The notes below the pieces were generated by a model. That model was not told the DNA's origin. It ran no database searches and saw nothing but the letters and a program-made list of their open reading frames with translations. The position numbers were made by a program, and so were the translations under genes. DNA of 60,816 nucleotides, filler included. It is 4 parts of 4 records of this genome, joined end to end, with 100 filler letters (N's around TTAATTAATTAA, not from the genome) between each part and the next. Parts side by side here need not be neighbours in the genome. Positions count along the whole stretch, not along the records: positions 11,542 to 26,445 come from DRR378314_2426; 3 more parts are not named here. The stretch is one strand, 5' to 3'. Each line of letters starts with the position of its first letter. Within the stretch, counting starts at the first letter, position 1. Below, piece after piece: positions 11,442 through 43,988 of this stretch.

Positions 11442-11541
11442 NNNNNNNNNNNNNNNNNNNNNNNNNNNNNNNNNNNNNNNNNNNNTTAATTAATTAANNN
11501 NNNNNNNNNNNNNNNNNNNNNNNNNNNNNNNNNNNNNNNNN
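11442..11541. other. Artificial contig spacer (N44-TTAATTAATTAA-N44)
   Basis: N runs flank a linker with stop codons in all six frames. Confidence 0.99.
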
Positions 11542-11889
11542 GGGGGTAGAGAGCCGCAGGTATACACAACAATGTACCACGAACAGCTGAAACTACGCAA
11601 CTATTGACATCGCAGGCGACAGGAAACAAAACCAGCAGCAGGCTAAGCGAAGAAACGCAAAGAAGAACAAACCAACCGATGCATCCAGAACTGCGTTGGC
11701 CACAGAGAACACGACTCCTCAACACGAAAGCAAACAAAATGTGCAGAGTATGCATTAGCAAGTTCATCAGCCATATTTGCGGAGCACTTACAATTGCTTC
11801 TCTTAGTGACTTCTACGCGGCTGACGGTAGCAACACCCCGTTCTGCCGCGCGCATCCCAGCGTGAGCGCGAACCAGGTCGCTTGCATAC

Positions 11890-12112
11890 CTGTGCTGCTT
11901 GCTCCTTCCCCCGCTGATCCTTTCTGCGCGCGGTTGCTTGGATCTCGGAGTACCATTGCTGCATCACAGTTGCTTAAATCGACATACCCACGGCCACTTT
12001 GGAATCCGGAAAAGGAAAGATACAATGCCAGAATGAAGCAAAGAAGAACAGCGGCAGAGTACGCAGCTGTTCTTCGAGCCAGTGCGCCCCTGGCGAAACG
12101 TGCAGCTCCCAT
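11890..12112 (-). CDS. Probable first exon of a type II membrane protein; gene truncated by the contig start
   Basis: ATG at 12112 reads MGAARFARGALARRTAAYSAAVLLCFILALYLSFSG (basic N-terminus plus one TM helix), ending at a GTATGC donor. No family recognised. Confidence 0.3.
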
Positions 12113-14151
12113 CGCGGTAGGCACTGCAGAGAGAAGAAGCAAACAGATGCGTACAACTTCACGAGGCAACGACGAATTCGACAAGATAATGTATGCAGAA
12201 ATACTTTTCGAGGCTGTCAAAAATAGCCAGGTAAAATTAACTCAGGTGAACGGCTAGAGGTGCGCGCAGCGACGGGGGGACTCGCAAACACAGCTGGAAG
12301 CAACGTGCGCCACGTGGGCGAGCTTCGAAAAGACCTAAGTGCGCCCATGCGGGACCTTGCGGAGAGTGCGGGAAGGGCGGGGGGCGCCTGGAGCACAGCC
12401 CCTCCACGCAAACCTTCTCTCTCGCCGTTTCGCGTTTCCCGAATGCTCTTGAAACCAGCTTCGCGTGCTCCGTCTGCCGTTATTTTCCTCTTTGCGTGTA
12501 TTCCACTGCTGCATACATGTCCAGCACACAATCTTGCATAAAGCGCAGGATGAGAGTACTTCAGCCCACGTGAGACTCCTGCGAAAGTCTATCAAGATAC
12601 TGAGGCAGTTCGCAAAGCAGGCAACTGCCCACTGTACGCCAGGCAATCTCTCCTCAGAAAGCCCGTGCTGGGCGACCAGGAGAATACATCGAACTAAAAA
12701 TAAGCGCTTAGCACAGTAAACGAGAATTCACGCAACTAACGAAAACAAGGACATCCAGCGTCATCAAAATCAAATCCATTCTACTGCTTGCGGAATGGGA
12801 CAACTAAACGGAGCTGTGTCTCGAGCGCACGCAACGGCAGGAGAGAGTACGCGAACCGCAACTGCACACTTTGGCTCCTATTTCATACAATTGCGTCTTC
12901 ATCGCGCAGCACGGAGTCATAATGACATGTTGATAATACTCCATTCCAGGCTGGTATTTTGTTGGACGCGACTCTGCCGCGCTACTCGAACCAATGTGCA
13001 ATCGCACTAGTGCGAATGTGAAGGCCCGCGTCCAAGGTTCCAGCAGGCACGTGCGCGCGCGAATCTGGGCCAGTTTCCGTCGCTTCAGCTCGAATAAATG
13101 TGAACGTGATGCCAGGTGAATTGCATTCTGCCGAACTGCGCAAGTTGCTTCCAGTTGGGTGTCTCACTGGGGTTCACAGCAGGTCAATCGATCCAATATT
13201 CCCTGGTCGACTACGCCAGTTTGCCCAAAGAGATTTCCCAAGAAGGCGTGAAGCACTACAGCCCGCTGCGCAGCAGCTCTCTAAGTACATGTGCGTTGAT
13301 ACAAAGTGCTCGCATGCGCAATGAACATGCTTGGCGAGAAAGAACCGGTAAGTAATCACCCTTATGAAAACCATCCATAGTTGAGTTTTGGGTGCAACCC
13401 CTTGCCCCAAAGGCCTCTCAAGTGTACGAATCTTTGCAGCAACAGTCCCCAGAAGCACCTTCACGCTCTTCCGTTCGCACCGTCGGAGGTTGATATGCTC
13501 GAGAGATTCAACGACCACACACACCTCCTACCATTCACTGCGTGCGTCGAGCATACCCGACGGTAGACAATTTGCACTTTTAGAACGCGAAGAACGCTGT
13601 TGAGAGGGGTAAAATATCCTTCTTTACCCATGATTCCGCTGCGTGTCGCAGTGGAGCGAGTTCTGCTGGTTGTTCGACCGGCGGCACCGCGGCGAGCGAT
13701 GTGCCAAGTATCTGGTTCCGTACGCGTTGCGCACACCAATCCTCACTGCTCTTATGTGATCAATTTCGTTAGCAAGACTCCACGTTCACTGGGAAATACT
13801 GGTATTGATTCTACTTTTGCTGCAGCTTTGCGCAGCGTTCAGGCGATTCTCACATCGATCAGTATGTGCAGGCTGGGCGTGTGAACACTTTCTCATTGGC
13901 CTCTGGCTGGGGTATGGACCTTGAATATCAGTGCTTGTGATACCGATTTACAAAATGTGATATACGGAGAGAAGTTGCCAACCGCTGCGCGAAGCCCCGC
14001 GTGCGCTGTGCACGCCACAGTGCTCGCGGCACGGACGAGGTGTATATCCGAGCCTGCACACGACCCCGCCCAAAGTGACGCGGGCTCCCTCTGACACTTT
14101 CTATTTCGATAATACTTGTTCAAGAAAGGCAGAGCGTGCCGGAGTGCGGCT

Positions 14152-16386
14152 ATGTCGAAGGAAAAGGGCGAGAAGTACGACTATTTGTTCAAGTTCATCG
14201 TCATTGGCGACACAGGTCCGCTCGCAACATGCTGTGTTCGCCGCGCCAGCGTCAATTTCCTCACACGAGAAAATCCTTGGCACCACCATCCTGGCCTGTG
14301 CTAAATGTTCAAAATATACACGCACAAGGGTTTTTCGCTTGCAATAAGAGATCGTATTGCCCGTGGCGTCCCGGGCGGCAGCGAGGGAGGCGCGACCTCG
14401 ATCCCTGTCGCCCTCGCTAGCGCCTGCGCGCAATCTGCGAGCTACGCGGGCCGCGAGAGTGCTTCCCCGTTAAGCTCACCTGCGCCTTTTCCTTCACTCT
14501 CTATGCATCTACAGGAACGGGAAAGTCATGTTTGTTACATAGATTTGTGGAAAACAAGTTTAAGAACGCGTCGTCACACACCATTGGCGTCGAGTTTGGA
14601 TCAAAGATTGTGTCCCTTGGTACGCGGGTCGAGCGTGGAAAAACGCACGCCAGGCACATGTAATTCGCCGCACAGCGCGCAGGCTTGCTTGCTTGCTCGC
14701 TGCGTTTCTGCGATGGCGTTCTCTGGAGCCGCGTGCAACGGCACTATTTTGGATAAGATTGCATATTTGTTCTCCTTTTTCTCTTTTCTGACCGCATACT
14801 GGCGTACTTACTGTTGTTCGCTGGCTCTTAGCGGAGAAAAAGATCAAACTGCAGATTTGGGACACTGCTGGCCAAGAACGCTTTCGGTACGTTTTTTCAG
14901 CGCTGGCGCGCGCAGCGCCCGAAATTCCTACCGCAGTGATGCTTGCGGACGCCTGACTTCTTTTTTTGTATTGCGCCGTGCTCTTTCTTTTTGTACGTGC
15001 AGTTCAGTGACACGAAGTTATTATCGCGGAACGGCCGGATGCCTCCTTGTCTACGACGTCACCAAGTACGTGCTGCCTGGCGCGACGCCTTCGCGCTCGT
15101 TCCCGCGAACAGGTCTGACCTGGCACGCTTGCTGGCCCTCTGGCTTTCTCCAGCTCACTCGCCTGGTCTTCCTCATCCTGCCCAATGCATCTCATTCCTT
15201 CTGTTAAGCCGAGACTCTTATCGGCACCTTTCTCAGTGGCTAGCGGATGCACGCAAGCTGGCGTCGGAAAAAATCGTCGCGGTGGTCGTAGGGAATAAGA
15301 CTGATCTGACTGACGACCGCGAAATCAACTTTCTGGAAGCGAGCAGGTTCGCTCAAGATCACGGTACGCCGGCATTTTGTAGCAGTCGAACGAAGTATTT
15401 TATTCGTTTCCATTGCAATTCTTATCGCAGTTGCAGCGAGCGGGCCGCACTGGTGGTTCTCAGGGTGATGTATGCGCACGAGTTCCTTCACCTGCTTCTT
15501 GCGAACCACATGCTCTGCAGGCCTCATGTTTCTCGAGACGAGCGCGCGTACTGGTGAAGGTGTAAGTGAAGTGTTCCTCAAGTGCGCACGAAGTATTTTC
15601 GCAAAAATAGAAAGCGGTACGTTAGCCACTGTGCTCACGTGCATGTCACTGACAGCGCGATGGCCTCGCGTGCCGGTGTATGCACGTAGCTGCAAGGGAG
15701 CACACGCGCGGATACGCTGGACGCGACGGTTCGTCCAGCAGCATGGTCGCTCGTCTCTGCCAGCAAGATACGGGGTATCTGAGCTAAATCTCAGTTATAC
15801 TCACACTCTATCGGATGCCAATAGTCTTGCATAAAGTGATCGGGCTGCTGGAGTACGCCCCGGAAGGTATTTGCCGCGGGTAGACCACTGTGCGCTATTT
15901 TCTCTCGTGCCTGTTGCTGCACTCGCTGCGGCTGTTGGTCGTAAAAGGCATATTCTCTCCAAACGTCTTGATGATGTGCTCCTCGTTGGTTTCTCGTCAG
16001 TTGCAATGGGAACGGTGCGAACTGGGCGCCGTATCCTGTTCCTTGCTTTCATGCATGGCCGAGAAAGGCAGCGCATCCGCGCCACGTTCAACTCGGGAGG
16101 GTTGGCCCCGAACCTGCCGTTGCTGCCACACTGCGGAGCATATTGTGGAAAAAAAAAAGAAAAAAACACATTCAAAAGCGCGCCCGGCGTACTCTGCATG
16201 ACGTGGTTGACCTTGCGTGTATTTTACCCATTGGTTTGGAATGCAGGTGAGCTGGACCCGAACACTGTCTCGTCGGGCATCCAGTACGGCTCGTACACGC
16301 GCGCGCCCGGCGCGCGTGCTGGAGACGCTGGCGGCGCGTCAGCTGCGCTCACGCCGGGCGGAACGGCACCGTCTTGTGCGTGCTGA
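14152..16386 (+). CDS. RAB4: Rab4-family small GTPase, 7 exons, 225 aa
   Basis: Exons 14152-14215, 14515-14619, 14832-14886, 15003-15065, 15209-15363, 15521-15616, 16247-16386 (678 nt). Motifs [81 protein letters not shown], and C-terminal CAC prenylation motif. Confidence 0.92.
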
Positions 16387-16962
16387 GCGCATCGATATCG
16401 CGCTGATGCACGATTCACCAGATAAGGTTTCTCGACAAGAATTTTGCAGTTGCTACCTACCGTCATGTTTTCGGAATCGCCGTCCGAACGAGGGCTCCGC
16501 GTGCTCAATGGGCTCCGCGTTCCGCGCCGGCTGTCCTTCCAGTATCGCAGAGCGTGCGCGCACGCGGTTTTTTTTTTCAGCATTCTACTCGTTGCATACG
16601 TGTAGTTGTGCGCACGAATATTGCTGTAGCACTGCCAGACCACATTCTCGCCGCGAAAACCTTTCTAGCTTATCTAATTTCGCTTGGGTAGCGAGCTGGC
16701 CCACCTCCACACTGCAAGCCAGCTGATGCCATGCTTATGCATTGTATTTGAATAAACAAGTATTCGCTGCGCAGAATCTCCAGCTCCATGAGTACATCAT
16801 AGCACATACAAGATTGAACGGCGGCTCGCACACAGATCGAGAGCGCGCACCGTTGCGCTGCGGAGCGGCTTGCAGGCGGCGACGCCGAGCGCCCGAGCAG
16901 CGCGCACACCGGCTATCCTTCTTCCCCTCATCAGCAGTCGACATGCGCCGCGCCGCGCATCG

Positions 16963-19900
16963 TCATTCGATGTGCTGCAGTAGTGCCACAACAGGCAATC
17001 AAAGACAAACACGTGCGCACAGGGCGCATCAATTTACAGCGCACGCCGCAGAAACTCCAGCATGTCTCGGAGACAGGGATACCGCTTTCGTTCGCGCGCG
17101 CGGCTGCCACCAGAGCGCGTACCTGTTCCATGTACCGGTAGAACCGCTCCGCGTACATGTGCGGGTCCACAGCAGAGATTTCCTCCTGCACAACCAAGCG
17201 TTACAAGAGTTGCTATCATGCATATAAGAGCGTATGGTAGACCATCTTCATGCTGTGCAAGCCGCGTATCGCGTGAGGAACGATGCACTTTGCCGCGTCT
17301 GGCGGCCGGCGCGGTTCGTTCCTTTCGTGCGCACACAGAACGGTAACCCTACCAAGCGACTCGGCGCACGGAATGACACGTCTGTAGAAACGTATTCGGA
17401 CCTTCTTATGGCGTATCGATTTGATAATTGTCTCCATTTTCTTCCTTCGATTATACTTTTGGAAAATATCGATGATGCCGAGAAAGTACATTTCCGGCAC
17501 GTCGCCGGGGTCGTCGTCCTCGTCGGGGCTCGAGAGCATCCCTCCATCTTGCTGCATAAACTCAGAGCGGTGATGACTACGGACGGCGGGGCGCATACCG
17601 GTCCCGCGGCGCAACAGACAGGACGTCAGCATGCAGGCGGGACCTGTTCTTGCCAATCACGCCGGAATACCTATTTTCTTGGAAATGGCTTACACATGCG
17701 AGTGCACTGGGATCCAACGCAACCAAGCACAATCAGCTCCGTGCGGTTTCGCATGGATCGCCAGTAGAACGAGTACGTACGTACAGCCATCCCGACACAC
17801 ATGGTTGCCTAAACCACTGCTACCGTAATACTGCAATCAGGATAGGTGACAAAAGCAGAATGATCTTTTGCGCGCATTGAAAGGATACAAGGCCTATCGT
17901 GAATTGGCGGGAAGAGCACGTCCACGCATGGAACGCGCTGCAGGAAAACGCAGTGCGATTGATTGCAGCCCAAAGGGGGACCTGCCCAACCCTAAAACGA
18001 GAAAATAAATAGGATATGGAACGCACATTCGATGTGACATCGATCGGTCGAACGAATTCTTCGCGAATGACTGTTTTGTAACAGTTCGCGATGATCCGGA
18101 CGATGTCGATGCACCGGTGCCCGTCGAAGTGCTCTGCAGGTGCGATTCTGGGTCTATGAAACTCGTGCGGAGTCTTGTAAAATGGATCCCTATTAGCATG
18201 GAATAGTCCATAATATTCAACGACTCGAGAAACTGGATCAGAGCAGCAATCACATACCCAGAGGCAATATTTAGGTCTCAGATCGGCGCAGCGTTCTCGC
18301 GACAACGCATTGGCTCGCCATGGCGTATACTCTCAGTGCACACAGGTGCCTTGGCGTCAGGCAGCGCAACATTCACCGCATACTGGCGTTACCGAGAAAG
18401 TCAGCAGCAGATTGCCAAACAAAAAATAAATACCCTACGATAACGTATGAACGGTACCATACGCGAAACATGTCGATGATGACGAAAAACAAAGAAAAGG
18501 AGCCATCACCGTACCTTGACATCGGCATAGATCTGCTGCAGAAGTCGCAGCCGCCGCTCAGACCCGACCACTATCGAGCGCTGGAAGTCTGCCTCTTTCA
18601 GAATTACGTCGACTTTTGCTTTTTCCTTTTCTGTGGCAGCCCTTCCGACTAGATGCAAACGTTCAAGAAAATCCGCAATGCAGCAATTGCTCATCAATTA
18701 GCACGCACGTGACCGTGAGACAAGCTGGGCGGAGCGAGAGAAGCAAAGAGGACCTATAAGCATCGAACGTTGAGCAGCTGCGGGGTGCACCGTCCATCTT
18801 CAAGGCCAACAAACCTCACACGAGTGACGCCTCGTGCGACACGACGCGCACAGCTCGAAACAAGTGACTGCGCGCGGGTAGCGTCATTTACATCACCCTT
18901 CGTGCATGCTCAAGGGCGCGGTAGAACTTGCGCCGCGCCGGCAGCCTACCACCCCGGTAGTGAGCAGCGCCTCACTTCTCTTCCGTCAACGTACCGACGG
19001 ACCCCTTGAGGTCGTAGCGCTCGTGAATGACCTTTTCCGTATCGAATACATTGGCCATGACCACCAGATGCATTTCTCTTTGCCCGATGTCGACAGTCTT
19101 GGGACGGAATCTGCAGCCCCAGTGGCGCATAGCAACAACCCACAACAAACGCGTCTCGACGCCGTCACCCTTCTTTCTTTCTTACGCAAATGCCCTCTGA
19201 CAAGATCGGCCGTGCACGAGGGCGAAGGAAAAATACCAGCAAAACCACATATTTCTCCCCAGACGCACGAAATACCACCAGAGAAGACACAGCGACGACT
19301 CGGAGAAACCGAAGCCTCTCGGACCGCCTTTCCCAACACACCTGTGCAAGCCGAGAATCCGCATGATCAGCGTATTGGGGTGGCTGCTAATATGGCGGTA
19401 GTACTGCATGAGCATGGCGCGCATGTCGCGCGCCTCCGCCTTGGATATCGCTTTCATCACAAACCGCCCGTCGTACGAGAAGTAGAACGCCTGCCCCGAC
19501 TTGCCGGGCGACGCGAGCTCGGACAGCGCGCGCCCGCCCGCAATCGATTCCGCGTACAGCTGCGACGAGATCCCAAACGCGCGCCGGATCATGCGGAACA
19601 CAAACGGCGAGTAGTCCTTGAACTCAAACGACCCGTACCCGCGCGCCGAGAGCACCGTGCGCTCATTGCCTTCCACAAAGTCACGCACAGACGGCTCGCG
19701 CGGCTGGTGGCGCCCGTAGCGGCGCGCGGACTGCCCGATGCCGACGCGAATGCACTGCGTGCGCACGAACCCGACGTCGCCCGCGTACAGCGAGCGGCCG
19801 CGGCGGAGCCGCCCGCGCAGCTTCCGCGAAGCGGCCGGCGAGAGCTCGCCGACGGCGGCAAGCGGCGAGCCGGGCGATGGAGCGCCAAACGACGCAAACG

Positions 19901-22900
19901 ACGCCCGCATCGTGCTGTCTGACCGTTCGTTACCTGACGCAGCGCGCTCAGCGAGATGCACATCGCCGCCGTGCGCGCTGGCGACACTGGGGGTGTGCCC
20001 GTCGGGAACGAGGCTTGCGTCGCGCGCGTCGCCGCTGCTCTGCCGCTGCGGTGCTTCGTCGATCGCGTCCAGCTCGCTCCCGTCGCCAAACGACCGCTCG
20101 AGACCAGAGTCGCCGCGCGAAAACTCGCTGCTGCCCGCATCGCTCGCCGTGCGGTACTCGCGCAGCTCCGCCAGCGGAACCGAGCCCGAGCGCTCGTCAG
20201 CAAACGCGGCGCGCCGGCGCGCTGCGTGGTCGCGCGCGGCGCGCGCGTCGCTGGCTGAGATCGACCACTCGCACGCCGTGCAGAAGAACGCCCCCGCGCA
20301 CACAAAAACATCGGCACCGCACTCTTCGCATGCAGACGGGCGCAGCGACTCCAATGCAGCCGTGCGGTGCGCGCGCCACGCACACTGGATTGTCCAGGCC
20401 GCTGCAAAACGCCGCGGGTCACGCGGGTCGCTGCGCGCGGCGGCGGCGTCCTCCGCGCCCGCGTCCGCGACCGGGCGCACGCGCACCCACGCCGACGCCC
20501 CGAGCACTCCGCCGCCAGCCGGAGCGTCGCGCGGGTGCGCAGGGGCGGCGTCGCTCGGCGACGACGTGAGCTCTAACCACGCCCACGGCAAGCCTGTCGT
20601 TTCAGCCACAATGACCAATACGTCGTGGACGCGCGACGAGCGCGGCAGCGACAGCGACAGCGCAAACGCGCGCGCCTCGTCGCCGGCGCCGCGTACGCAC
20701 AGCACCGGCGCGTCCGACGCCGCGCCCGCGCCCTCTTTGTGCGCCACTTTGGCACGACGCCGCAGCCGCGAGAGGAATATCGCAGAGCGCGCTGCGCGTC
20801 GCAGCGCCGCGCCGGCTCGCTTGGGCGCCGGAAGCGACCTCGCAGGCGTCTCGGCGGCGCGCGCGACCCGCGAGCGCCGCGGCCGCAGCCCGAGGTCGCT
20901 CAGCGCGCCGAACGAGCGCGGCAGCGACGGCGGCGGCGCGCCCTCGGCGCTCGCGGCCGCGGCGCCCGCAGCACCGCCGGCGGGTTTCGCGCCGTCGCCC
21001 TCGACCGCCGTCTCGAGGCGCTCGGAAGCAGCGCGGGCGGCGCGCGCAAACTGGCGCGCGCGCAGCGACCGCCGCCGCGCCGCGTCGCGAGCGCGCGCCA
21101 GGTCGAGCTCGTCGTCGCTGTCGGCGGCCGCGCCCGCCGCACCGCGGCCCAGCGGGTCGCGCCGCCACGGGCACTCGAGGCAGAAGTACTCGCTGCACAC
21201 CACAAACGTGCGCGCGCTCCCGCACGCGGGGCACGCCGCGGGCAATCCGGCGGTGACAAAGCGGTTGATGCGAAACCGCCACCATCCCTGAATCGTTCGC
21301 GCGGCGCGAATCGCGCGCGGGTCGCACAGCGTGCGCTCCATGCAGCCGCCGATCAGGTTCCACGTTGCGGCGAGCTCGGCCGCGTCCATCCCGCTGCACA
21401 CCGCCCACGTGAGCGGCGGGCGCACCGCGGCCTTGCGCGCGCGTTCGCGCTGCAGCGCGAAAAACGACTGCGGCGCCGGACTCCGCGGCGGTACGCGGAC
21501 GCCGGCGATGTCGAGCGCCTGCCGCCACGACTCGGACGCGGGCGCGCCGCCGCGCACGACGACCAGCGAGCCGCGACGAACGTTGTGCGGCGCGTCGAGG
21601 CGATGCGCCACGGGGGCCTGCGGGAACACAAACGCAATCAGGCGCCCGCTGTCGCCGAAGCCGAGCTCGTCCAGCGCGCGGTCGCCGCGAATCGCCCACA
21701 CCGGGCCGCGGCGCTGCCTGGCGCCGGCGCGCCGCGGCAGCAGCTCCGCCCAGCTGTGCGGGAAGCCGGGCGCTGGCGCCGCGCGCGCACCGACGCCCGC
21801 GGCGCGCGGGGACAACGGCGGCGCCGCGTCCCCGCGCACTGCGTCGCCCGGACGCGCGCCACGATCGCCAGACGACTGCGCGGCCGCCGCGCCGCTTGTC
21901 GCGGGAGCAGGTGCGCGCGCATCACCGCGGGAGGTGCTCGCGTCTGCGCTGCCGCCTTGCGGCTCGCCGCCGAGCGACGCATCCTCGCTCGCTGCTGCTG
22001 CTGCTGCTGGTGATGATGTGCCGACGGCGGCGGCGGCTGGTGGAGCGCCCTGCGCGTTGGCGGAATCGGAGCTCGGCGGGCGCGCGACAAACGGCCCGCG
22101 CGCGCGCTGCGACGCGATGCCGCTCACGAGCGCGTCGATCGGCGCGCAGAGCATGCGGTCCTGCGGCGACGCTGACGCGAAATCCACAAAGAACCCGTGT
22201 AGCTCCGTGCGCGGGTGGCGAAGTGTCTCCGGCGTATTGAAAAAGATCCAGTCGCGCGGCAGGCCGGTGCGCTCGGCAATCGCGGCGCGCACGTGCGCGA
22301 TCGTGGTAGAGCGCTCGGCCTCGATGTGGAGCACAAGCGGGACCGCGCCGCGCGTTCCGCGGAACGAGATGCGCACGTACACCAGGCCGCTGCGCCGCGC
22401 CAGTGCCGTGTAGCGCAGCCCGTGCACCAGTCTCGCGGGCGCGCGGAGCACCGCGCGCAAACCAGCGCCGGCGCCGTCGCTCGCCGATCCGCCCACAACG
22501 CGCGAGAACGCGCGCCGCAGCGAGCCCACGCCGTGCTCGCGCTGGCGCCGCCGCCGATCCGCCAGCTCGCGCACGCTGCTGCGCGCTCGTGCGCGCGAAT
22601 TGCTCGCCGCCGCCGCAAGAGCAGTGTGACCAAGCACAGGGGCGCTCGAGCTGCTGTGGCGACGCGCGGCGCCGGCCGTTGCTCCGGGCGGCGCCGCGGG
22701 GCCGCCGAGGGAGGCGTCGAGCGGTCCGGCGCCGGCCAGCCCCTCCGCCGCGCGGGTCGAGCGCAAGGCGCCGCGCTCTCCGCTGGCGGCCGCAGCGCGC
22801 TGGCGACGCTCGAGCTCGCGGCGCGCACTTCTCCCGATTTTTTTGCGCTGGATCACCGCATCGATCGCGGCAGCAGGGCCGTAAGCGAGCCGGATAGCGG

Positions 22901-25898
22901 GGTGTGGAAGCGACGATATGTGCGTGGCGCGCGCGAGTGCTCGCACTGCAGCGCCGCCGTGGAGGACCGCGCGGTCTGTTGGCGGCGCGGTCGGGTAAGA
23001 GACAGCGGGCGCGACCGCATGCAGCCACGCCGCGCGCACGCCGGTGAGAAAGCTCACGCGGTCAATGACGTCGCCAACTGTTGCTCCAGATGCCATTGTC
23101 GGCGAAAGCGCCGCTGTGCGCGCTGTATCAAGGTACACGGCAACACAGCCGTCCGGCACCCTGCTGGCGTCGCGCTCGCCGTCGCCGCCAGCGCCGGTCT
23201 CCGAGGAGATGAACGACGGTACAACGAGCCGCCGTACGCGCACCAACACCGCAACAGCATCCACATGCTCTGACAGCGGACAAAGGGGTTCGTCTGGCTG
23301 CGGCTGTGCCAGAGGCGCTGCTGCGTCTTGATCGTTTCGCACAGCGACCCGCAGCGCCGCGGCGGGGAGACCCGTCATGCGCGACAGCAGCTGCAACAGT
23401 GTGCGCGCGGTGATCCCTCTGGCAGCAGATATAATCTGCGTGAAGGGGATGAGGGTTCCGAACATGCAGTGGATCTCGATGCGCCCACTTCCCAGCCCGA
23501 ATGGCGCGTGCGCGTCGCCCGCGGCATCGTGCTCGGCATCGCCGCCACTGCTCGAGCGCCGTCGCAGCAGCGACGCGCCAAAGGCCCGCAGCTTCCCAAA
23601 CGCCGCGTGCCCGCCCCGGCGTCGCACACGCAGGTCGAGGTCCGAGACAGAGGGCACGCTGGCCACCGTGCTAGCGCTAGTGCTTGTACTTGCCGCATCG
23701 TCGCTACCGTCGCGCTCGCTTCCCTGCTCCATCATACGGTCGGAAGGCTGCGCCGCCGCCGCAGATTGCTCATCTCCGCCCTTGCGCGCCGCGTGCGGTC
23801 CGTGCGCGCGTCGCCACCGGTCGCGCGCCACGCGAACCGAAGGCGCTTCCTCGGGCAGCACGTCCGCAACAAGCGTGGTTGCGTGGGGAATCTGCGCCGC
23901 CGCGAGCGTCGCCTGGCTTGAGAGAGCGCGCGTCGCCACTCCTGCGCGAACGCCGATGCGCACGACGCGGGGCGAGGCGCCCAGCGCAGCCGAAGCCAGT
24001 AGCTCCAGCGCCGCCACGCGATCTGTTGGCGATGCAGCGACATGTGCACACAAGAGCTCGCCACTAGAGTTCTCGATACGAAGCGCAAGACGCTCGACCT
24101 GCGTGTCACCACCGTAGCCGAGACACAGCCCGTCATCCGACGTGCTGCTGTCGTCGCGCATTCCTACATGGTCGTCCCCATCGGCGCCGGCACGCCCGGC
24201 GCCCGCACCCGCGTGCAGGGCAAACGCCTCTCCTACCGCTTCCGCAGCGCTGGGGAGCATCGCGTGGCGCGCAAGGCCGCGCGCCGTGGTGAGCGGCAAC
24301 GCATCACCCAGGCGCTCGTCGATACGGTCGAACACGACATCGACAAGCGGAGCGACAAAAGCGCCAAGGCACCCGGCGAGTGTCACAGGGCCTGACGCGG
24401 GAACCGCGGCGCCGTCCGCGGCGCCCGCAGCGGCGATCGCGCCAGCGCTTGGCGCGTCGACGCCCTGGCGCACCGAAACGGTGACAAAGTAGCGCTGCCA
24501 CGGCGGTGGTGGAAGATCAGCATCGATATCTACCAGCACGACTTGCGCGTCCGGCGTGCACGCGTACCCGGCGACAACCATGGCGCACACGCGGCCCAAC
24601 GGCAGCGCGTGCGCGTCGCGCAGGGTCGTAATCGGCGCGACTGCCGCGTGGTGAGCGCGCACATCGGAGAACACCGGGGGATAGGCCTCGAGCAGCGATG
24701 TCCTTGCGGCGTCGGAAAGGAACAGGGCCGCATACGAGGACCGCACAAATACGTTGCGCATGTCGCGGGCACTGGTGCCTCCTCCGACTGCGACGGGGCC
24801 CATCGAAAGCATGCTGGCAGAGCCGTACAGGCTTCCCGGGTTGCCGCGGCGCAGGCGCCCACGGGCACCCGCAGCGAGAGCAGAGCGTGGGCCGCCGCTC
24901 TGCGGTGGCGTGCCAGCAGGAACGTCCATATCCGCACAGGAGCGCTGATGGGCGGCCGCAGCGCCACTGGTGACAGCAGCACGCAGACGACGACGTCGGG
25001 CTTCGCGCACCGTGACTGCTGTCGGCGTCGCACCCGTCGCCGCAGACAAGTGCGACAGCGTCGACGCGAGAGAGACAATGTCGTCCGCCGTTGCTGGTCC
25101 CGCGCCGCTATTTGAACTGCCGCCGGCGCTCGGATCCATGATTCCAACATGCACAGCATCTTCACGCAAGCGGAGTGCAGTCTCACTTACTGCAGTAAGC
25201 ACCGGCGGCCCGACAGCTTCGTCGTCATCATCAAGACCATCTGCTTCGTCGTCGCTGTTGTGCAGCACGCTGTCGCTCGCGGCGGGCTGATTTCCAACGC
25301 GTCGCACGCCGGACACGCCACCGTTGTGAACGAAGTGCGAAGCGTCGTTTGGAGAAAGTACCGCGCTCTCAATATGCACAGGAAGTGACTGGCTCACCAG
25401 AGCGTCTGGATCCTCTTCGCTAATGCTCATTGTGTTCGTAAGCGTAACGTCGTCGTACGAGCCATCGCCCAGCTGGGCGGAAACAGCGACACAGGGAGGA
25501 GCCTCGGTGCGGAACGCAGGCGCACCGCGCAGAGCTTCGGCGACCCCGCTCGCCGACATCGACCGTTGCCGTACATGGGCAAAAAATGGCGGAGGTGAGC
25601 CACGTGGAAGCGAGCGAGGGAGATCAAGGTCAAGCTCCGCATCAGTGGCTGCAGATCCCGCGGCATCGAGTCCACTCGAGTGCGAACCGGAGGGAGAGGA
25701 CGACGACGTAGCGCGTGCGCCGCGCGCGAGGTCGTTGTCCGCGTGGCCAACCGCGGAGTCTTCTCGCCCAGCTTCACCGGGCTTCATCGCGTGAATTCCC
25801 CCACGCTCAGCGGACGAAACGCTCTCGTGTGAACTCGTAGTTGTGGGAGCACCATCGGGTGCACGAGAAGCGACAGCACCGCTGCGCGCTTGGATCAT
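16963..25898 (-). CDS. Phosphatidylinositol-4-phosphate 5-kinase (type I PIP5K) with ~2000-aa multidomain N-terminal extension, ~2420 aa
   Basis: Exons 25898-19342, 19110-18995, 18648-18515, 18232-18027, 17576-17402, 17185-17123, 16974-16963 join in frame (7263 nt). Kinase motifs FEFKDYSPFVFRMIR, SPGKSGQAFYFSYDGRFVMK, YDLKGS, IMDYSML, YFLGIIDI and KKMET...ISAVDP..YAERF. Glu in the activation loop indicates type I. The start codon is uncertain. Confidence 0.88.
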
Positions 25899-26445
25899 GT
25901 TGTCTCCGACGCGAACACCCGCGCAGCTCGGGCAGAACACATACAAAGTGGTGCCCAACAAAAAAAAGCTGCGCGGCGTGATCGCGCTCGTCCTGACGAA
26001 AACTCGCAAATGATCCCCTTCAACGACGCGCCGAAATTTCGCGACAGCCGGTACCCTTAGCTACGAACGAATAAATCCAAAATCCCGCACGAATTTTTGT
26101 GTTTCCGCCGTACCACCAGGGATACAACCCGCTCTATATCTCTGATCGTCGGCAACAGCTGTGCAGCACCGGGAAGCACACGCGCAGCAACGACGTTTGT
26201 CAGTATCGAACAAGCGAGAGGGGGGAATTCCGGTACGTCGGGATCTGCACGCACAGACGCAGCTATTCCCAGAACGCAACGCCAATGTAATAGGCACACT
26301 ATGAAACGAAAGTGCTGTCGAAATGATTATTAGCCAACAAATGGCCGTACCGTCACCAATTGTGCGCAGCGGTCTACCAGCAGAAGCTCAAGGGCACCCT
26401 CGCGTGCAGCGCCCGACGCGAGGAAGGCACACAGCGCAGCACGAC

Positions 26446-26545
26446 NNNNNNNNNNNNNNNNNNNNNNNNNNNNNNNNNNNNNNNNNNNNTTAATTAATTA
26501 ANNNNNNNNNNNNNNNNNNNNNNNNNNNNNNNNNNNNNNNNNNNN
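26446..26545. other. Artificial contig spacer
   Basis: N44-TTAATTAATTAA-N44. Confidence 0.99.
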
Positions 26546-26546
26546 G

Positions 26547-27091
<545 letters not shown>

Positions 27092-27095
<4 letters not shown>

Positions 27096-28000
27096 GCCAG
27101 CCCGCGTCCTCTCGCAACGGCATCGCGGATATCCCCGCCGGACAGCTCCGCACCCGCGCCGAAGAGGCCGCCAGTGTCCTGCCGCCCCTGCTCGTGCAGG
27201 CGCAGCAGCTGGCGGGCGCGGTTCTGTTGGGGGAGCACGGACGCAGGCGCTCGGGCGTCGGCGATGACTTCTGGCAGTATCGCCCGGTGCAGCAGGGCGA
27301 CAGTCGCCGCATGATCGACCACCGCCGATCAGCCCGAGGCGATCAGCAATTTGTCCGCGAACGGGAATGGCAAATCGCTCAGACCGTTCACCTTTGGGTC
27401 GATCAGGGGCAATCCATGCGCTTTGCCTCTGATACAAACCTGCCGCGCAAGATCGACCGGGCCCGCCTGCTGTCATTGGCTGCAGCGGTGCTGATGATCC
27501 GTGGGGGCGAGCGTGTTGGCCTGACCGGCGGGCAGCTGCCGCCCCGCCGTGGCAATATGCAAATCCTGCGCATGGCACAGCATTTCACCGATGATGACGA
27601 TACCCCCTACGCCCCGCCAGAGCACAGGGCGCTGATCCCGCATGCCAGGGCGCTGTTTGTGTCCGATTTCCTCGGCCCGTTTGAGGAGTTGGAGATCGCG
27701 CTCACCAAGGCTGCGGATCGCGGGCTGCGCGGGGTACTGTTGCAGATCCTGGACCCCAGCGAAGAACTGTTCCCCTTTGCCGGGCGCACCCGCTTTGAAG
27801 GTCCGGGCAATGGCGTCACCCATGAAACACTGAAAGCCTCCGCCCTGCGCGACCGCTATCTGGAGCGCCTGGCTGAGCGGCGGGACGCGCTGGAGCGCCT
27901 GTGCCGCGCTGCGGGCTGGACACTGGGGCTGCATCATACCGGGGACAGCGCGCAATCTGGCCTGCTCTGGCTTTATCACGCATTGGAGCGACGCCAATGA
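27092..28000 (+). CDS. DUF58 (vWA-like) MoxR-associated protein
   Basis: [42 protein letters not shown]. Start overlaps the moxR stop (GTGA). Confidence 0.88.
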
Positions 28001-30759
28001 CCATGATCGCGGGCATAGGTTTTGCCAGTCCCTGGTTGCTGCTGGGGCTGTTGGTGCTGCCAATCCTGTGGCTGCTGCTGCGCGCCATCCCCCCCGCGCC
28101 AAAGCGGCAGCCGTTCCCTGCGGTGACGCTGCTTCTGGGGCTGAAGGATGACGAAAGCCTGTCGGATCGCACACCGTGGTGGCTTCTGCTGTTGCGGATG
28201 CTGGCGGTTGCGGCGGCGATCATTGGCCTCTCTGGTCCGGTCCTGAACCCGGTACAGGAACACGGCGGCTCCGGCCCCCTGCTGATCGTGATGGACTCGG
28301 GCTGGGGCGGAGCGCCAAATTGGGAGCAGAACCGCGCTCAGATCGAAGCGGAGCTCTCCGAAGCCGGGCGGGCGGGGCGCCCCGTCGCCATGCTGCGTCT
28401 CACCGCACCGGAACCGTTGCAGTTCCTCGCTGCCGCGCAATGGACCCGGCAGCTGGCAGGGATGACACCCGCGCCATGGGTCGCCGCCCCTGCTCAGGTG
28501 GCCACGGCCCTCGACGTGATTTCCGAGACCGACGGTGGTTTCGACACGCTCTGGCTCAGCGATGGGGTGGAAATGCAGGGCCGCAGCGATCTGGTCACCG
28601 CGCTGGCCGAACGTGGCGAAATTGATGTCTACGAAAGCGGCGCGCCGGTGATCGGCCTGCTGCCTGCCACATATGAAGATGGCCTGATCGTGCTCCACGC
28701 CGCGCGCAGCACGGCCGGTCTGACGCAAGAGGCCACGGTGCAGGCGCTTGGGCCTGACCCCAGCGGCACCGAACGCGCACTGGCCTCGGCTACGTTGGAG
28801 TTCGACGCGGCAGCGCATCATACCGAGGCGCAGCTGGCATTGCCGATGGAGCTGCGCGCCCGCATCAGCCGCTTTGAAATCCTCAACACCCGCTCTGCCG
28901 GGGCAGTCTCGCTGACCGATGATCGGCTGCGGCGACGCGAGGTTGCGCTGATCTCGGCCCAGAGCAGCGACGAGGGTCTCGCACTGCTGTCCCCTCTGCA
29001 TTATCTGCGTCAGGCGCTGGAGCCAACGGCGGAGCTGCTGGAAGGGGCGCTGTCGGACCTTCTGCCCGCCAACCCGGATGTGGTGGTGCTGGCCGATGTG
29101 GCCCGACTGGCCCCGGCACAGGAAAAAGCCCTGATCGACTGGGTGGATCAGGGCGGGCTGCTGCTGCGCTTTGCCGGGCCACGTCTGGCCGCCAGCGACA
29201 CCGCCCGCGACACCGAGGAGCCGCTGATGCCAGTGCGCCTGCGCATCGGCGGACGTAGCATCGGCGGCGCCATGAGCTGGGGCGAACCCAAGGCGCTGGC
29301 GCCCTTTGGCGAGGGCTCGCCCTTTTACGGGCTGGAGATCCCGCAGGAGGTCACGATCAGCTCGCAGGTGATGGCGCAGCCGGACCCCGAACTGGCCAGC
29401 CGTGTGGTGGCCGAGCTGAGTGACGGCACGCCACTGGTCACCCGCAAGCCGCTGGGTCAGGGGCAGGTCATCCTGTTCCATGTCACGGCCAATGCGGAAT
29501 GGAGCACACTGCCGCTGTCGGGCCTGTTCGTCGAGATGCTGGAGCGGCTCGCAGTCTCCTCCGCCGCCAAACCTCCGGTGGCCGCTGATCTGGAGGGCAC
29601 TACCTGGCAGGCCGCCGAGGTTCTTGATGGCTTTGGCCGCCTGACGGACGCCGACACGCTGGCCGGGGTCGCCGGGCCGGATCTGGTCGATGCGCCCTCT
29701 GGTCCCGAACTGCAACCGGGGCTTTATACCAGCGGCAGCCGTGCCTATGCCCGCAACGTCCTGCGGGAGGGCGATGATGTGCTGCCCACATCCTGGCCCG
29801 CGTCGGTGCCGGTGATGACTTATGAGGGGGCAGATGAACGGCCGCTTGGCGGTCTGCTGTTAGGTGCGGCGCTGGTGATGCTGGCGCTGGATATTGCCGC
29901 AGCGTTGCTGGTGTCCGGCCTCTGGTCACCTGCCCGTACGGCGGCAATATTCCTGATGAGTGGTCTCATGCTTGGGGTGCCGCAAGAGATGCTGGCCCAA
30001 TCGGTCCCCACCCCGACCGACCTTACCGCTGAGCTGACTTTGGCACATGTTCTGACCGGCGATGCCAAGACCGACCGCATTTCCTCCGAGGGGCTACAGG
30101 GGCTGAGCAACGTTCTGACCCTCCGCACGTCGATCGAGCCTGCACCGCCTTACGGCGTTGATCTGGAGACGGATGAGCTGGCGTTCTTTCCCTTCCTCTA
30201 CTGGCCAGTGACGGAAGGCCAGCCGCTGCCCTCCTCCGATGCCTATGCCAAGCTCAACGCCTATCTGCGCACCGGCGGCATGATCCTCTTTGACACCCGC
30301 GATGCGGATCTGGCGCAGGCCGGAGCCACCAGCAACGCGGCGCGGCGACTACAGCAACTGGCGCTGCCACTGGACATCCCGCCACTGGAGCCGTTGCCCG
30401 CCGACCACGTGCTGACCCGGGCCTTCTACCTGTTGCAGGATTTTCCTGGTCGTCATCCGCGTGGTCAGATCTGGGTCGAGGCCGCGCCCGAGGATGCCGA
30501 ACAGGTCGAGGGGCTGCCGTTTCGCAACCTCAACGACGGGGTGACACCGGTGGTCATCGGCGGCAACGACTGGGCCGCGGCCTGGGCGGTGGATCAAGAC
30601 AACGCCCCCCTTTACCCGGTCGGACGCGGCTTTGCCGGCGAACGGCAGCGGGAGTTGGCACGGCGCTTTGGCGTCAACCTGCTGATGCATGTGCTGACCG
30701 GCAACTACAAATCCGACCAGGTGCATGTGCCTGCACTGCTCGATCGATTGGGGCAATAG
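27997..30759 (+). CDS. BatA-like N-terminal double-TM / vWA-like / DUF4159 membrane protein
   Basis: FASPWLLLGLLVLPILWLLLRAIPP..FP...PWWLLLLRML (BatA-type). C-terminal LAFFPFLYWP, GGMILFD, NDWAAAWA, GNYKSDQVH (DUF4159). ATG overlaps the previous stop (ATGA). Confidence 0.85.
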   Translation: MTMIAGIGFASPWLLLGLLVLPILWLLLRAIPPAPKRQPFPAVTLLLGLKDDESLSDRTPWWLLLLRMLAVAAAIIGLSGPVLNPVQEHGGSGPLLIVMDSGWGGAPNWEQNRAQIEAELSEAGRAGRPVAMLRLTAPEPLQFLAAAQWTRQLAGMTPAPWVAAPAQVATALDVISETDGGFDTLWLSDGVEMQGRSDLVTALAERGEIDVYESGAPVIGLLPATYEDGLIVLHAARSTAGLTQEATVQALGPDPSGTERALASATLEFDAAAHHTEAQLALPMELRARISRFEILNTRSAGAVSLTDDRLRRREVALISAQSSDEGLALLSPLHYLRQALEPTAELLEGALSDLLPANPDVVVLADVARLAPAQEKALIDWVDQGGLLLRFAGPRLAASDTARDTEEPLMPVRLRIGGRSIGGAMSWGEPKALAPFGEGSPFYGLEIPQEVTISSQVMAQPDPELASRVVAELSDGTPLVTRKPLGQGQVILFHVTANAEWSTLPLSGLFVEMLERLAVSSAAKPPVAADLEGTTWQAAEVLDGFGRLTDADTLAGVAGPDLVDAPSGPELQPGLYTSGSRAYARNVLREGDDVLPTSWPASVPVMTYEGADERPLGGLLLGAALVMLALDIAAALLVSGLWSPARTAAIFLMSGLMLGVPQEMLAQSVPTPTDLTAELTLAHVLTGDAKTDRISSEGLQGLSNVLTLRTSIEPAPPYGVDLETDELAFFPFLYWPVTEGQPLPSSDAYAKLNAYLRTGGMILFDTRDADLAQAGATSNAARRLQQLALPLDIPPLEPLPADHVLTRAFYLLQDFPGRHPRGQIWVEAAPEDAEQVEGLPFRNLNDGVTPVVIGGNDWAAAWAVDQDNAPLYPVGRGFAGERQRELARRFGVNLLMHVLTGNYKSDQVHVPALLDRLGQ

Positions 30760-30804
30760 CGCCATGGTCCCCCTCCAATTCGCGCCGCAAGGAGCCCATC
30801 CGCA

Positions 30805-32847
30805 ATGACGCAATCCATCCTCTTCGACCCGCTGGTGCCCTGGCTGGTGCTGGCCGGTCTGGCCGGGCTGAGCACGCTGGCGCTGGGGCTGGCGATCTGG
30901 CGGCGGCTTGCAGGCTGGGCGCTGCGCGCGGGCGCAGCACTTGTGCTGCTGGTCGCGCTGGCTGGCCCGGTGATGCAGGTCGAAGACCGCAGCCCGCTCA
31001 GTGATATCGTCATCGTGGCTGAGGACCGCACCGCCAGCCAGCACCTGTCCGACCGCCCCGACCAGATGACGGTCGCGCGCGCCGAACTGGAGGCGGCGCT
31101 GGCCGGGCGCGCCAACACAGAGGTGCGCTGGATCACCGTGGAGGACAGCCCAGACGATGGCGGCACCCAGCTGATGGACGCGCTGACCCGAGCCCTGGCG
31201 GACGAGCCACGCGCCCGGGTGGCCGGGCTGATCGCGCTGTCCGACGGGCAAGTGCACGACATGGCCCGCGCGCCTGACCTGCCCGCACCGCTGCATCTGT
31301 TGATGACGGGCCGCTCGGACGACTGGGACCGCCGCCTGATCGTCAAGAACGCGCCCTCCTTCGGCATCATCGGCGAACCGATCACCCTGACGCTCCGGGT
31401 TGAGGATCAGGGCGCTGTGCCCGATGATGCGCGGCTGACGGAGTTGCAGATCTCCATCGATGGTGGCGAGGCGCAGACTTTCCGCCTGCCGGTGGGGGTC
31501 GATTTCGACCTGCCGCTGACCCTGCCCCATGGCGGGCGCAACGTGGTGGAGTTCCGCGTCCCCGAGGCCGAGGGCGAGCTGACCGCGCGCAACAATGCCG
31601 CCCTGTTGCAGATCAACGGCGTGCGGGACCGGCTGCGGGTGCTGCTGGTCTCCGGCGCGCCGCATCCGGGCGGGCGCACCTGGCGCAACCTGCTGAAATC
31701 CGACAGCGCCGTCGATCTGGTGCATTTCACCATCCTGCGGCCACCCGAAAAACAGGATGGTGTGCCGGTGGACGAGCTGTCGCTGATTGCCTTCCCAACC
31801 CGCGAACTGTTCCTGGAGAAGATCGAGGACTTCGACCTGATCATCTTTGACCGTTACAAGCGACGCGGCATCCTGCCCTCAGCCTATCTCGAGAATGTGG
31901 CCAACTACGTGCGCCGCGGTGGCGCGGTGCTGGTGGCGGCGGGGCCGGATTTCGCCAGCGCCGACAGTATTTTTCGCACACCGCTCGCGGAAGTTCTGCC
32001 TGCCAGCCCCTCGGCCCGCGTACTGGAAGAGCCCTATCGCCCCACCATCAGCGAGATCGGCCTGCAGCATCCCGTCACCGCAGAGCTGACCGGCGCAAAG
32101 GACTGGGGGCGCTGGATGCGGCAGGTGGAGCTGGACACCACCGGCGGCGCCACACTGATGCGCGGCATCGGCGAGCGTCCCCTGCTGACGCTGGACCGGG
32201 TGGAGGAGGGCCGTGTCGCGCTACTGGCCTCGGACCACGCCTGGCTGTGGAGCCGCGGTTATGAGGGCGGCGGTCCGCAGCTGGAACTGCTGCGCCGTCT
32301 CGCCCATTGGATGATGAAGGAGCCGGAGCTGGAAGAAGAGGTGCTCACCGCCGAGGCCACCGGCCAGCGCATGCGGATCCAGCGGCGCACGCTTGGGGAA
32401 ACCGTCGGCCCGGTGACGGTGACCGCCCCGGACGGCAGCACCTCGCAGGTTCGCTTGCGCGAGGCACGTCCGGGTCTCTGGGAGGGACGTTATGAAAGTG
32501 ATCAGATCGGCCTCTACCATCTGGCGGAGGGCGATGAGCGTGCGGTGATCGGTCTCGGCCCCGCCGCGCCCCGCGAGTTCGAACAGACCATCGCCACCGC
32601 CGATGTGATGTCGCCCTTGGTGCGCAGCCTGCGCGGCGGTGCTGTGGCGCTGGAGGATGGGCTGCCATCGTTGCGCAACATCCGCGAGGGGCGGCCCGCG
32701 GCGGGGCGTGGCTGGATTGGTCTGGTGCCGCGTGGCGCCTATGAGACCACTGCCGTGACCCAGTCGCCGCTGTTGCCCGCGTGGCTGTTGGTGCTGCTGG
32801 CCGCGTCACTGCTGATCGGCGCCTGGCTGCGCGAAGGGCGCAGCTGA
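30805..32847 (+). CDS. Membrane protein with vWA-like and GATase1-like domains (MoxR operon partner)
   Basis: Two N-terminal TM helices, EDRTAS...LSDGQ (MIDAS-like), RVLLVSGAPHPGGRTWRNLLKSD..VDLVHFTILRPPEKQD, FDLIIFD, and a C-terminal TM helix. Confidence 0.78.
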   Translation: MTQSILFDPLVPWLVLAGLAGLSTLALGLAIWRRLAGWALRAGAALVLLVALAGPVMQVEDRSPLSDIVIVAEDRTASQHLSDRPDQMTVARAELEAALAGRANTEVRWITVEDSPDDGGTQLMDALTRALADEPRARVAGLIALSDGQVHDMARAPDLPAPLHLLMTGRSDDWDRRLIVKNAPSFGIIGEPITLTLRVEDQGAVPDDARLTELQISIDGGEAQTFRLPVGVDFDLPLTLPHGGRNVVEFRVPEAEGELTARNNAALLQINGVRDRLRVLLVSGAPHPGGRTWRNLLKSDSAVDLVHFTILRPPEKQDGVPVDELSLIAFPTRELFLEKIEDFDLIIFDRYKRRGILPSAYLENVANYVRRGGAVLVAAGPDFASADSIFRTPLAEVLPASPSARVLEEPYRPTISEIGLQHPVTAELTGAKDWGRWMRQVELDTTGGATLMRGIGERPLLTLDRVEEGRVALLASDHAWLWSRGYEGGGPQLELLRRLAHWMMKEPELEEEVLTAEATGQRMRIQRRTLGETVGPVTVTAPDGSTSQVRLREARPGLWEGRYESDQIGLYHLAEGDERAVIGLGPAAPREFEQTIATADVMSPLVRSLRGGAVALEDGLPSLRNIREGRPAAGRGWIGLVPRGAYETTAVTQSPLLPAWLLVLLAASLLIGAWLREGRS

Positions 32848-32949
32848 CGTAACTCATGGGTCGCTTACGGACCTGAGCCTAAGTCGCGCGGTGTTAGAGC
32901 ACCTACGCCAGCGCTTGTGGCTTGAGTAATTTTTCACGCAGTGGGCCAA

Positions 32950-33005: not shown

Positions 33006-33063
33006 TTCGCTCCTCAGATGTTCTTGCAAACTGCCACAGGCAGGTGGGCTTGGACAATGTCCC

Positions 33064-43985: not shown

Positions 43986-43988
43986 AGG

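Follow-up and report, generated by a model that had tools for sequence, protein, structure and literature searches.

How far can the region in front of a phosphatidylinositol phosphate kinase (PIPK) core be extended, and is such an extension read as one expressed protein? The question is raised by a locus on the minus strand (25898..16963) of the 60,816-nucleotide (nt) stretch of DNA analysed here, referred to below as the window. An earlier note, made from the letters of this DNA, had placed there a single open frame of more than 2100 codons, in which a 2H-like domain, five ubiquitin-like domains (UBLs) and two IQ-Zn modules were joined to an intact PIP5K core in an apparently undescribed architecture. 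We consider it likely that the locus is an expressed gene with seven exons, from a GC-rich eukaryote, encoding a PIP kinase of 2420 amino acids with a lineage-specific accessory region of ~2080 residues. The accessory region is previously undescribed, with a pseudo-2H domain and a duplicated IQ-like/zinc module as its solid novelties, and we treat the ubiquitin-like label of its other repeats and a signalling-hub function (calmodulin, GTPase or ubiquitin-fold coupling) as hypotheses.

The gene is laid out in seven exons separated by six GT-AG introns. Its ATG at 25898 is the first after an upstream in-frame stop and its stop codon ends at 16963, both as the earlier note had placed them, and the spliced coding sequence of 7263 nt translates into 2420 amino acids plus stop with no internal stops. 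Transcribed sequence was available from one public run, X1 (type guessed as RNA), which contained a fraction of 0.59 of the words sampled from 16800-26300. A 1452-nt contig of this run showed all six sequence-predicted introns as joints, with CT..AC ends on the plus strand and thus GT..AG on the minus strand (16974/17123; 17184/17401, with the cut at +1; 17576/18027; 18232/18515; 18648/18995; 19110/19342), and continued unspliced into exon 1 up to 19865. Because this contig is spliced, the gene is transcribed. The first exon ends within the N-lobe of the PIP5K and six further exons finish the kinase, which is covered piecewise by the Pfam profile PF01504 as follows:

Exon 1, 19342..25898, minus strand: 2185 codons plus 2 nt, with the N-terminal extension in full and the kinase N-lobe as far as 'RILGLH' (PF01504 positions 5-69); the donor at 19341 is an RNA joint.
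Exon 2, 18995..19110, minus strand: 116 nt, PF01504 positions 73-102, with 'DLKGS'; joints 19110/19342 and 18648/18995.
Exon 3, 18515..18648, minus strand: 134 nt, PF01504 positions 103-152; RNA joints.
Exon 4, 18027..18232, minus strand: 206 nt, PF01504 positions 151-207, 'MDYSM' and then a Ser/Thr-rich insert; RNA joints.
Exon 5, 17402..17576, minus strand: 175 nt, PF01504 positions 211-269, 'GIIDIF' and the activation loop; joint 17184/17401 with the cut at +1.
Exon 6, 17123..17185, minus strand: 63 nt, PF01504 positions 266-287; RNA joints.
Exon 7, 16963..16974, minus strand: 12 nt, three codons and the TGA stop; joint 16974/17123.

The profile pieces follow each other in order through exons 1-6 and run from position 5 to 287 of 288. 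The exon-1 piece scored 76.8 bits against a cut-off of 27, and exons 2, 4 and 5 each exceeded 27 bits alone. When the exon-1 protein was searched against PDB sequences, all 22 matches were PIP kinases, the top one being type I alpha (E 1.7e-14); with the N-lobe alone, type I alpha (E 1.6e-15) and type II beta (E 1.1e-14) were tied. The stretches VMK, DLKGS, MDYSM and GIIDIF were found in the spliced product, and the catalytic motifs of PIPKs are named as IIK (with the ATP Lys), MDYSL and IID in an excerpt of PMC3823935. In the activation loop, the window protein reads KKME where the aligned PIP4K2C reads KKAA. The Glu of a 'KKxE' activation loop goes with type I PI4P 5-kinase specificity, and Ala in its place with type II. 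Judged by sequence, the last ~335 residues make up a whole PIP5K catalytic core; given its family and its intact motifs, it is expected to be an active type-I-like enzyme making phosphatidylinositol 4,5-bisphosphate, PI(4,5)P2, from PI4P. The catalytic end of the protein is, in this sense, ordinary.

The region has a G+C content of 70%, and many other frames in it stay open for 300-520 codons; the open frame was for that reason tested against chance. From stop to stop it extends over 19182..26060 on the minus strand and holds 2292 open codons, for which the base composition (0.0186 stops per codon) gives log10 P = -18.7, and over 1000 shuffles the longest run that stayed open was 616 codons, with a median of 276. 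A bacterial or chance open reading frame in GC-rich DNA is ruled out by the splicing, the Pfam matches and this shuffle and composition test. Codon periodicity, with G+C at the first codon position above that at the second (GC1>GC2), holds throughout the coding part of exon 1 (25898 onwards), and the pattern upstream of the ATG differs. G+C at the third codon position is ~0.55-0.65 in codons 1-270 and 0.7-0.92 further on (0.8-0.92 between codons 1100 and 2100). Overall G+C is only 42-56% in the small 3' exons, so that a strong composition gradient lies inside one gene.

Exon 1 is also represented in X1. Among the pieces listed, those at 21133-21473, 22060-22495, 22838-24022 and 24195-26082 were colinear with exon 1 and had no joints, and the last of them extends beyond the ATG and also beyond the in-frame stop upstream of it. 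Cover was counted in 30 bins of the gene region, in which bins without cover carry no evidential weight; depth was above 0 in 29 of the 30, and only 5 letters differed from the window, two of these differences being synonymous and three, all within amino acids 82-160, non-synonymous. Two X1 contigs had loose ends, with 255 or more letters off the window, at 22765 (around amino acid 1044) and at 25246 (around amino acid 218, in an acidic run). Both points lie in low-complexity coding sequence, where allelic indels, isoforms or assembly tangles are possible. With an exon 1 of 2185 codons, a kinase profile matched almost end to end and a spliced RNA contig across the junctions, the single long frame joined to an intact PIP5K core has held up as the earlier note described it.

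What, then, does the extension contain? The one part of it with recognisable relatives lies towards its N-terminus:

Degenerate 2H phosphoesterase-like domain, 24327..24749, minus strand, amino acids 384-524: recognised by homology, an AlphaFold2 model and fold searches.

A HMMER search with amino acids 375-1574 against 1.84 billion representatives (E<=0.001) returned 13 matches, and all 13 map to amino acids 382-526, with E from 3.4e-6 to 6.9e-4. These homologues are 126-466 amino acids long and none of them carries a kinase. The Pfam family tRNA_lig_CPD (PF08302) was reached at its cut-off by one of the 13 (23.5 vs 23), with three just short of it, and phrog_36523, a family of unassigned function, was matched by all seven homologues tried and by the window domain itself (E 0.0025). 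Modelled by AlphaFold2 with the homologue alignment, the domain had a predicted local distance difference test score (pLDDT) of 83-96. With this model, Foldseek found CNPase at E 4.3e-4, and VIA-align found it at Z 13.3 (root mean square deviation 3.0, 136 amino acids aligned), the top 11 rows of 11 being 2H enzymes; phage Acb1 gave a row at Z 7.2, and the BFVD matches were giant-virus proteins and Acb1. In the ESM Atlas the 2H part scored 0.94-0.96, and one cluster had PF08302 on 11% of its members; with a recognition of 2001 (<2300) this is a lead only.

The catalytic motifs tell a different story in the window domain and in its homologues. In the alignment, motif 1 of the window domain is HHAAV (H-A-A, Thr replaced by Ala) and motif 2 is YFVTVS (F-V-T, His replaced by Phe), whereas both H-x-T motifs are kept in all 13 homologues. 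Since the second catalytic His and the Thr of the first motif are lost, the domain is probably no enzyme. Homology and the predicted model together confirm the 2H fold and descent, and the motifs place the domain outside the two-motif catalytic definition; it is most likely a pseudo-enzyme, acting as a non-catalytic binding or structural domain. The 2H-like domain of the earlier note is thereby upheld, though without one of the two catalytic His residues. Among the homologues, two GC-rich ones had additional matches, all weak and sub-threshold: P0005 has DUF1771 and Smr, and P0006 has a CUE at its N-terminus. Should these extras be real, they would tie the eukaryotic 2H family to ubiquitin-binding or Smr-nuclease contexts.

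Closer to the kinase, a small module occurs twice:

Z1, 21144..21341, minus strand, amino acids 1520-1585: IQxxxR at amino acid 1536, CxxC at 1556 and 1573; Zn_ribbon_8 (E 0.025) and TerY_C (E 0.022), both sub-threshold.
Z2, 20244..20435, minus strand, amino acids 1822-1885: IQxxxR at amino acid 1837, CxxC at 1857 and 1873.

The two copies share 41.5% identity over 53 amino acids (36 bits), and their 22 invariant columns include all Cys residues and the IQ..WR core. Exactly four CxxC motifs occur in the 2420 amino acids, in two pairs, and each pair begins 20 amino acids after an IQxxxR. Zinc-ribbon profiles on the modules stayed sub-threshold, with DZR at E 0.17 behind Zn_ribbon_8. The consensus of the IQ motif is IQxxxRGxxxR; Z1 has its second Arg at +9, and the Gly is found in neither copy. 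The duplicated IQ-like/Cys4 module is, as a sequence unit, real, and the labels IQ and zinc are to be taken at the level of motifs.

Between and around these modules, four repeats of ~85 amino acids follow a common pattern, 'h-x-V-R ... T-V-x-x-V ... T-G-L-P-x-x-W-L ... V-R-V'. Each was scored by a hidden Markov model (HMM) of the other three and compared with 3000 composition-matched shuffles (leave-one-out). The four repeats, and two further hydrophobic islands that are candidates for the same class, are:

U1 candidate, 23829..24113, minus strand, amino acids 596-690: hydrophobic island with no HMM or Pfam match; AlphaFold2 gives strand-strand-helix-strand at pLDDT 50-56.
U2, 23235..23492, minus strand, amino acids 803-888: leave-one-out 10.9 bits, reached by 2 of 3000 shuffles.
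U3, 22881..23156, minus strand, amino acids 915-1006: leave-one-out 14.1 bits, reached by 0 of 3000; blastp to U6 34% over 73 amino acids.
U4, 22134..22394, minus strand, amino acids 1169-1255: leave-one-out 12.9 bits, 0 of 3000; PF00240 at E 0.0099.
U5 candidate, 21459..21716, minus strand, amino acids 1395-1480: hydrophobic island with no HMM or Pfam match.
U6, 20469..20714, minus strand, amino acids 1729-1810: leave-one-out 29.0 bits, 0 of 3000; PF22932 sub-threshold.

Because the repeats are related beyond what composition-matched shuffles reach, a defined unit has been duplicated and retained. The four-repeat HMM found no further copies across the protein, so that by sequence U1 and U5 do not belong to the repeat family. 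Whether the unit is a ubiquitin-like (beta-grasp) fold is another matter, on which the evidence is suggestive only. When the four-repeat profile was run against PDB sequences, 12 rows were returned at E<=10, and 9 of the 12 were ubiquitin, in register over strand 2, helix 1 and the 'GIP' loop. PF22932 on U6 was found at E 0.14 with the exon-1 protein and at E 0.25 with the segment alone. Pfam on the other single segments gave an unrelated 4HBT for U3 (E 0.25) and nothing for U1, U2 and U5. A complex prediction of Z2 with zinc against U6 scored 0.01, which is no answer and bears neither way.

Taken from the N-terminus, the modules follow in the order 2H-fold domain, three repeats, IQ-like/Cys4 module, fourth repeat, second IQ-like/Zn module and PIP5K core, small hydrophobic units with low-complexity Ala/Arg/Ser/Gly-rich linkers between them. 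Hydrophobic content is 0.3-0.38 in the modules and 0.02-0.2 in the linkers. In such an arrangement the extension may place or gate the kinase through protein-protein contacts, the IQ-like helices would serve as light-chain or calmodulin sites, and the repeats would offer beta-grasp interaction surfaces. Candidates for other accessory architectures were considered as well. No Pfam match to EF-hand, MORN, FYVE or TCP1 appeared at E<=1 in the 2238-amino-acid exon-1 protein, and no run of transmembrane-like segments was seen, the best 19-residue hydropathy window (2.07) falling inside the 2H domain. EF-hand, MORN, G-protein-coupled receptor (GPCR) and FYVE architectures are ruled out by the Pfam scan of this protein.

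Several observations weigh against an accessory region built of functional modules and translated from one long transcript. Those on the extension favour an alternative in which most of it is evolutionary filler: folding would be limited to the 2H remnant and the Cys4 modules, the ubiquitin-like and IQ labels would over-read hydrophobic islands in low-complexity sequence driven by GC, and there would be no specific regulatory role. Amino acids 1-2080 are indeed rich in Ala and Arg (A 19.5%, R 11.2%, S 9.7%, G 9.6%, K 0.5%), and no significant family is found outside the 2H domain and the kinase. Pfam IQ (PF00612) had no match at E<=10 on Z1 or Z2, and PF00240 on U4 scored 16.1 bits, below the cut-off of 25.4. 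The best E of the repeat profile against PDB sequences, 0.11, comes from adding up four polyubiquitin repeats of 2.5 bits each, and a single domain reached 13.7 bits at most (E 0.5). The ESM Atlas gave U4 a best score of 0.82 and no family. AlphaFold2 confidence was low over amino acids 525-1015 and 1160-1900: in the model with alignment only the 2H part was confident, and the model of 1160-1900 without alignment was unusable (mean pLDDT 37.8). The clustering of the non-synonymous RNA differences in amino acids 82-160 suggests weak constraint on the first ~300 residues.

Nor were relatives retrieved by which conservation of the extension, commonly taken as a test of function, could be judged. 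Among the 1.84 billion representatives, whose protist coverage is not established, no relative of amino acids 527-1574 was found by HMMER at E<=0.001. Searches for homologous proteins with amino acids 1-2080 and 2050-2200 (candidate lengths 1230-3917) had no match, nor had related-locus searches with the kinase N-lobe in metagenome and genome contigs or with the Z1/Z2 alignment in metagenome contigs; a search with the kinase N-lobe for longer proteins at E<=1e-10 was likewise empty and says little, this threshold being too strict for the library size. No homologue in the searched libraries shows the extension to be conserved. Within the protein, a self-blast of amino acids 1-2080 with SEG showed no off-diagonal match at E<=1.

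Filler is nevertheless unlikely in our view. The four repeats are significantly related when measured against composition-matched shuffles, the Z modules keep 22 invariant positions with all Cys residues, the IQ..WR core and equal spacing, and the only family indicated by the sub-threshold matches of the repeats is ubiquitin, with 9 of the 12 PDB rows in register. Of the five UBLs claimed by the earlier note, four mutually related repeats remain, as supported by the leave-one-out HMMs; the count of five does not stand, and the ubiquitin-like label is found at sub-threshold level only. Its two IQ-Zn modules stand as a duplicated module with a shared 20-residue spacing, and are without an IQ profile match or a zinc-ribbon match above threshold.

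The remaining points against the preferred reading concern the transcript. X1 depth was 0 in the bin 20604-20920 and 0.06 in the bin 21555-21871, both of them GC-rich, and no single X1 contig covers the whole gene. Without a gene-spanning contig, one continuous transcript is consistent with the data, short of proven. Moreover, the ATG lies only 547 nt from the end of its contig, so that an extra upstream exon is possible. Alternatively, an internal start late in exon 1 would give a short isoform with the kinase alone as the main product, and the long frame would be minor or untranslated: the spliced contig stops at 19865, near the separate start at ~19800 that the earlier note had suggested, and no single contig bridges exon 1 as a whole. 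Contig ends, however, are not transcript ends, joint-free contigs of X1 extend over exon 1 as far as 26082, and the coding periodicity is continuous. In addition, the first in-frame Met past 19865 is amino acid 2103, inside the core after the 'FKDYSP' strand, while the nearest upstream Met is amino acid 1997 (nt 19910). A transcript beginning at 19865 could not encode the whole kinase core, because that first Met lies inside it, and we regard the short isoform as the main product as improbable.

A slim chance, smaller again, is given to the boldest extension of the preferred reading, namely that the protein founds a new class of PIPKs. The dead 2H domain would sense a ligand resembling a 2',3'-cyclic phosphate or a cyclic oligonucleotide, the array of beta-grasp repeats and IQ/zinc-finger modules would read ubiquitin-fold and Ca2+/calmodulin signals, and together they would gate PI(4,5)P2 synthesis. 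By analogy, beta-grasp repeats alternating with IQ/zinc-finger modules are reminiscent of UBL-plus-zinc-finger pairs. Such a protein would make a direct physical link from nucleotide or ubiquitin-like signals to phosphoinositide production. That the fusion is an assembly artefact of two unrelated genes is scarcely credible: the window derives from a mixed eukaryote/bacterium assembly and two RNA contigs end loosely at 22765 and 25246, but the gene lies entirely in one contig with no N, an independently assembled run covers 29 of 30 bins with 5 differing letters, one open frame runs through with uniform periodicity, and both loose ends fall in low-complexity stretches (around amino acids 218 and 1044).

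The expressed long gene therefore remains the reading that we prefer. We believe it matters for the following reason: PIP5Ks make PI(4,5)P2, a central membrane signal, and lineages differ mainly in the N-terminal modules of these enzymes (EF-hand, MORN, seven-transmembrane (7TM), FYVE). If the modules described here are functional, they would represent a new wiring of PI(4,5)P2 synthesis in a protist lineage that has been poorly sampled, and would exemplify the recruitment of a 2H phosphoesterase domain to a non-catalytic role. Otherwise the gene adds one more to the long, fast-evolving extensions that proteins of GC-rich protists commonly have.

As to its surroundings, the window consists of four contigs (1-11441, 11542-26445, 26546-45957 and 46058-60816) joined by the spacers N44-TTAATTAATTAA-N44 at 11442-11541, 26446-26545 and 45958-46057, and the PIP5K gene sits entirely within the second of them, with no N inside. 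Contigs 3 and 4 have bacterial gene content, including BatA/DUF4159, PBP1C, bacterial alpha-2-macroglobulin, a hybrid histidine kinase, RecQ, MCP, GGDEF and others; it is the combination of these with the eukaryotic contigs 1 and 2 that marks a mixed eukaryote/bacterium assembly. The neighbouring genes observed were:

Contig 1, 2586-3023, plus strand: RAP-domain open reading frame (E 7.4e-9), a eukaryotic gene.
Contig 1, 8798-10317, plus strand: two exons resembling GPR180/TMEM145 transmembrane domains (E 4.3e-5 and 2.6e-4), a eukaryotic gene.
Contig 2, 14421-15554, plus strand: small GTPase gene of several exons, Rab4/Rab14/Rab2-like, that converges on the PIP5K gene ~1.4 kb from its stop (Pfam Ras E 1.6e-8 and 6.1e-10; top PDB match Rab4, E 2.8e-14).
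Bacterial contig, 33960-41668, minus strand: PBP1C (transglycosylase, transpeptidase and BiPBP_C) adjoining an alpha-2-macroglobulin of 1844 amino acids with an N-terminal PAN-like match.

PBP1C and bacterial alpha-2-macroglobulin are a well-known gene pair.

Finally, the protein was compared with known systems. The literature searched, on PIP5K/PIPK architectures, apicomplexan N-terminal extensions and UBL/IQ fusions, did not describe this combination; Table S1 of PMC10543664 and Tables S1-S3 of PMC3823935, supplements that may list the domains of apicomplexan and ciliate PIPKs, lay outside that search. Together with the empty search for amino acids 527-1574, this agrees with the undescribed architecture that the earlier note proposed. 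According to excerpts of the literature, the accessory modules known on PIPKs are NCS/EF-hand (in alveolates), 7TM, FYVE/TCP1 and MORN, and ubiquitin-like domains occur on type II PI 4-kinases, not on PIPKs.

A close comparison in layout is with the alveolate enzymes PfPIP5K/NCS (PF3D7_0110600) and TgPI4P5KA (TGME49_230490), which likewise place a C-terminal PIP5K core after a long regulatory N-terminus, one thought to link Ca2+ signalling to PI(4,5)P2 synthesis (PMC10543664 and PMC3823935, in excerpt). They are set apart, by description, by an EF-hand that the window protein lacks, where a Ca2+ input would come only through the IQ-like helices. TgPI4P5KB (TGME49_245730), the second and apparently dispensable Toxoplasma isoform in an excerpt of PMC10543664, resembles the window protein as a PIP5K without EF-hand in a GC-rich alveolate; no description of its N-terminus was found in the literature, and the two are compared by description only. 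The same principle of a conserved core with lineage-specific N-terminal modules is seen in plant MORN-PIP5K, in 7TM/GPCR-PIPK (type IV) and in the FYVE/TCP1 enzymes PIKfyve/Fab1 (type III), whose modules are all absent here.

Other systems share single elements with the window protein. Type II PI 4-kinases, such as plant PI4K-gamma and Tetrahymena TtPI4KII, combine a phosphoinositide kinase with ubiquitin-like domains, as may be the case here (PMC3823935, in excerpt), but they have a PI3/4K fold with one or two bona fide UBLs, in contrast to a PIPK fold with four divergent candidate-UBL repeats. Judging from titles and the beginnings of abstracts, IQUB and plant BAG proteins bring an IQ motif and a ubiquitin-like domain together, with neither a kinase nor a Cys4 module. 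The mini 2H phosphoesterases (phrog_36523, tRNA_lig_CPD PF08302, the CNPase catalytic domain and phage Acb1) have sequence homology and fold in common with the window domain; the homologues found by HMMER keep the second His and the first Thr in 13 of 13 cases and carry no kinase, whereas the window domain has Phe and Ala at these positions and a kinase fused to it.

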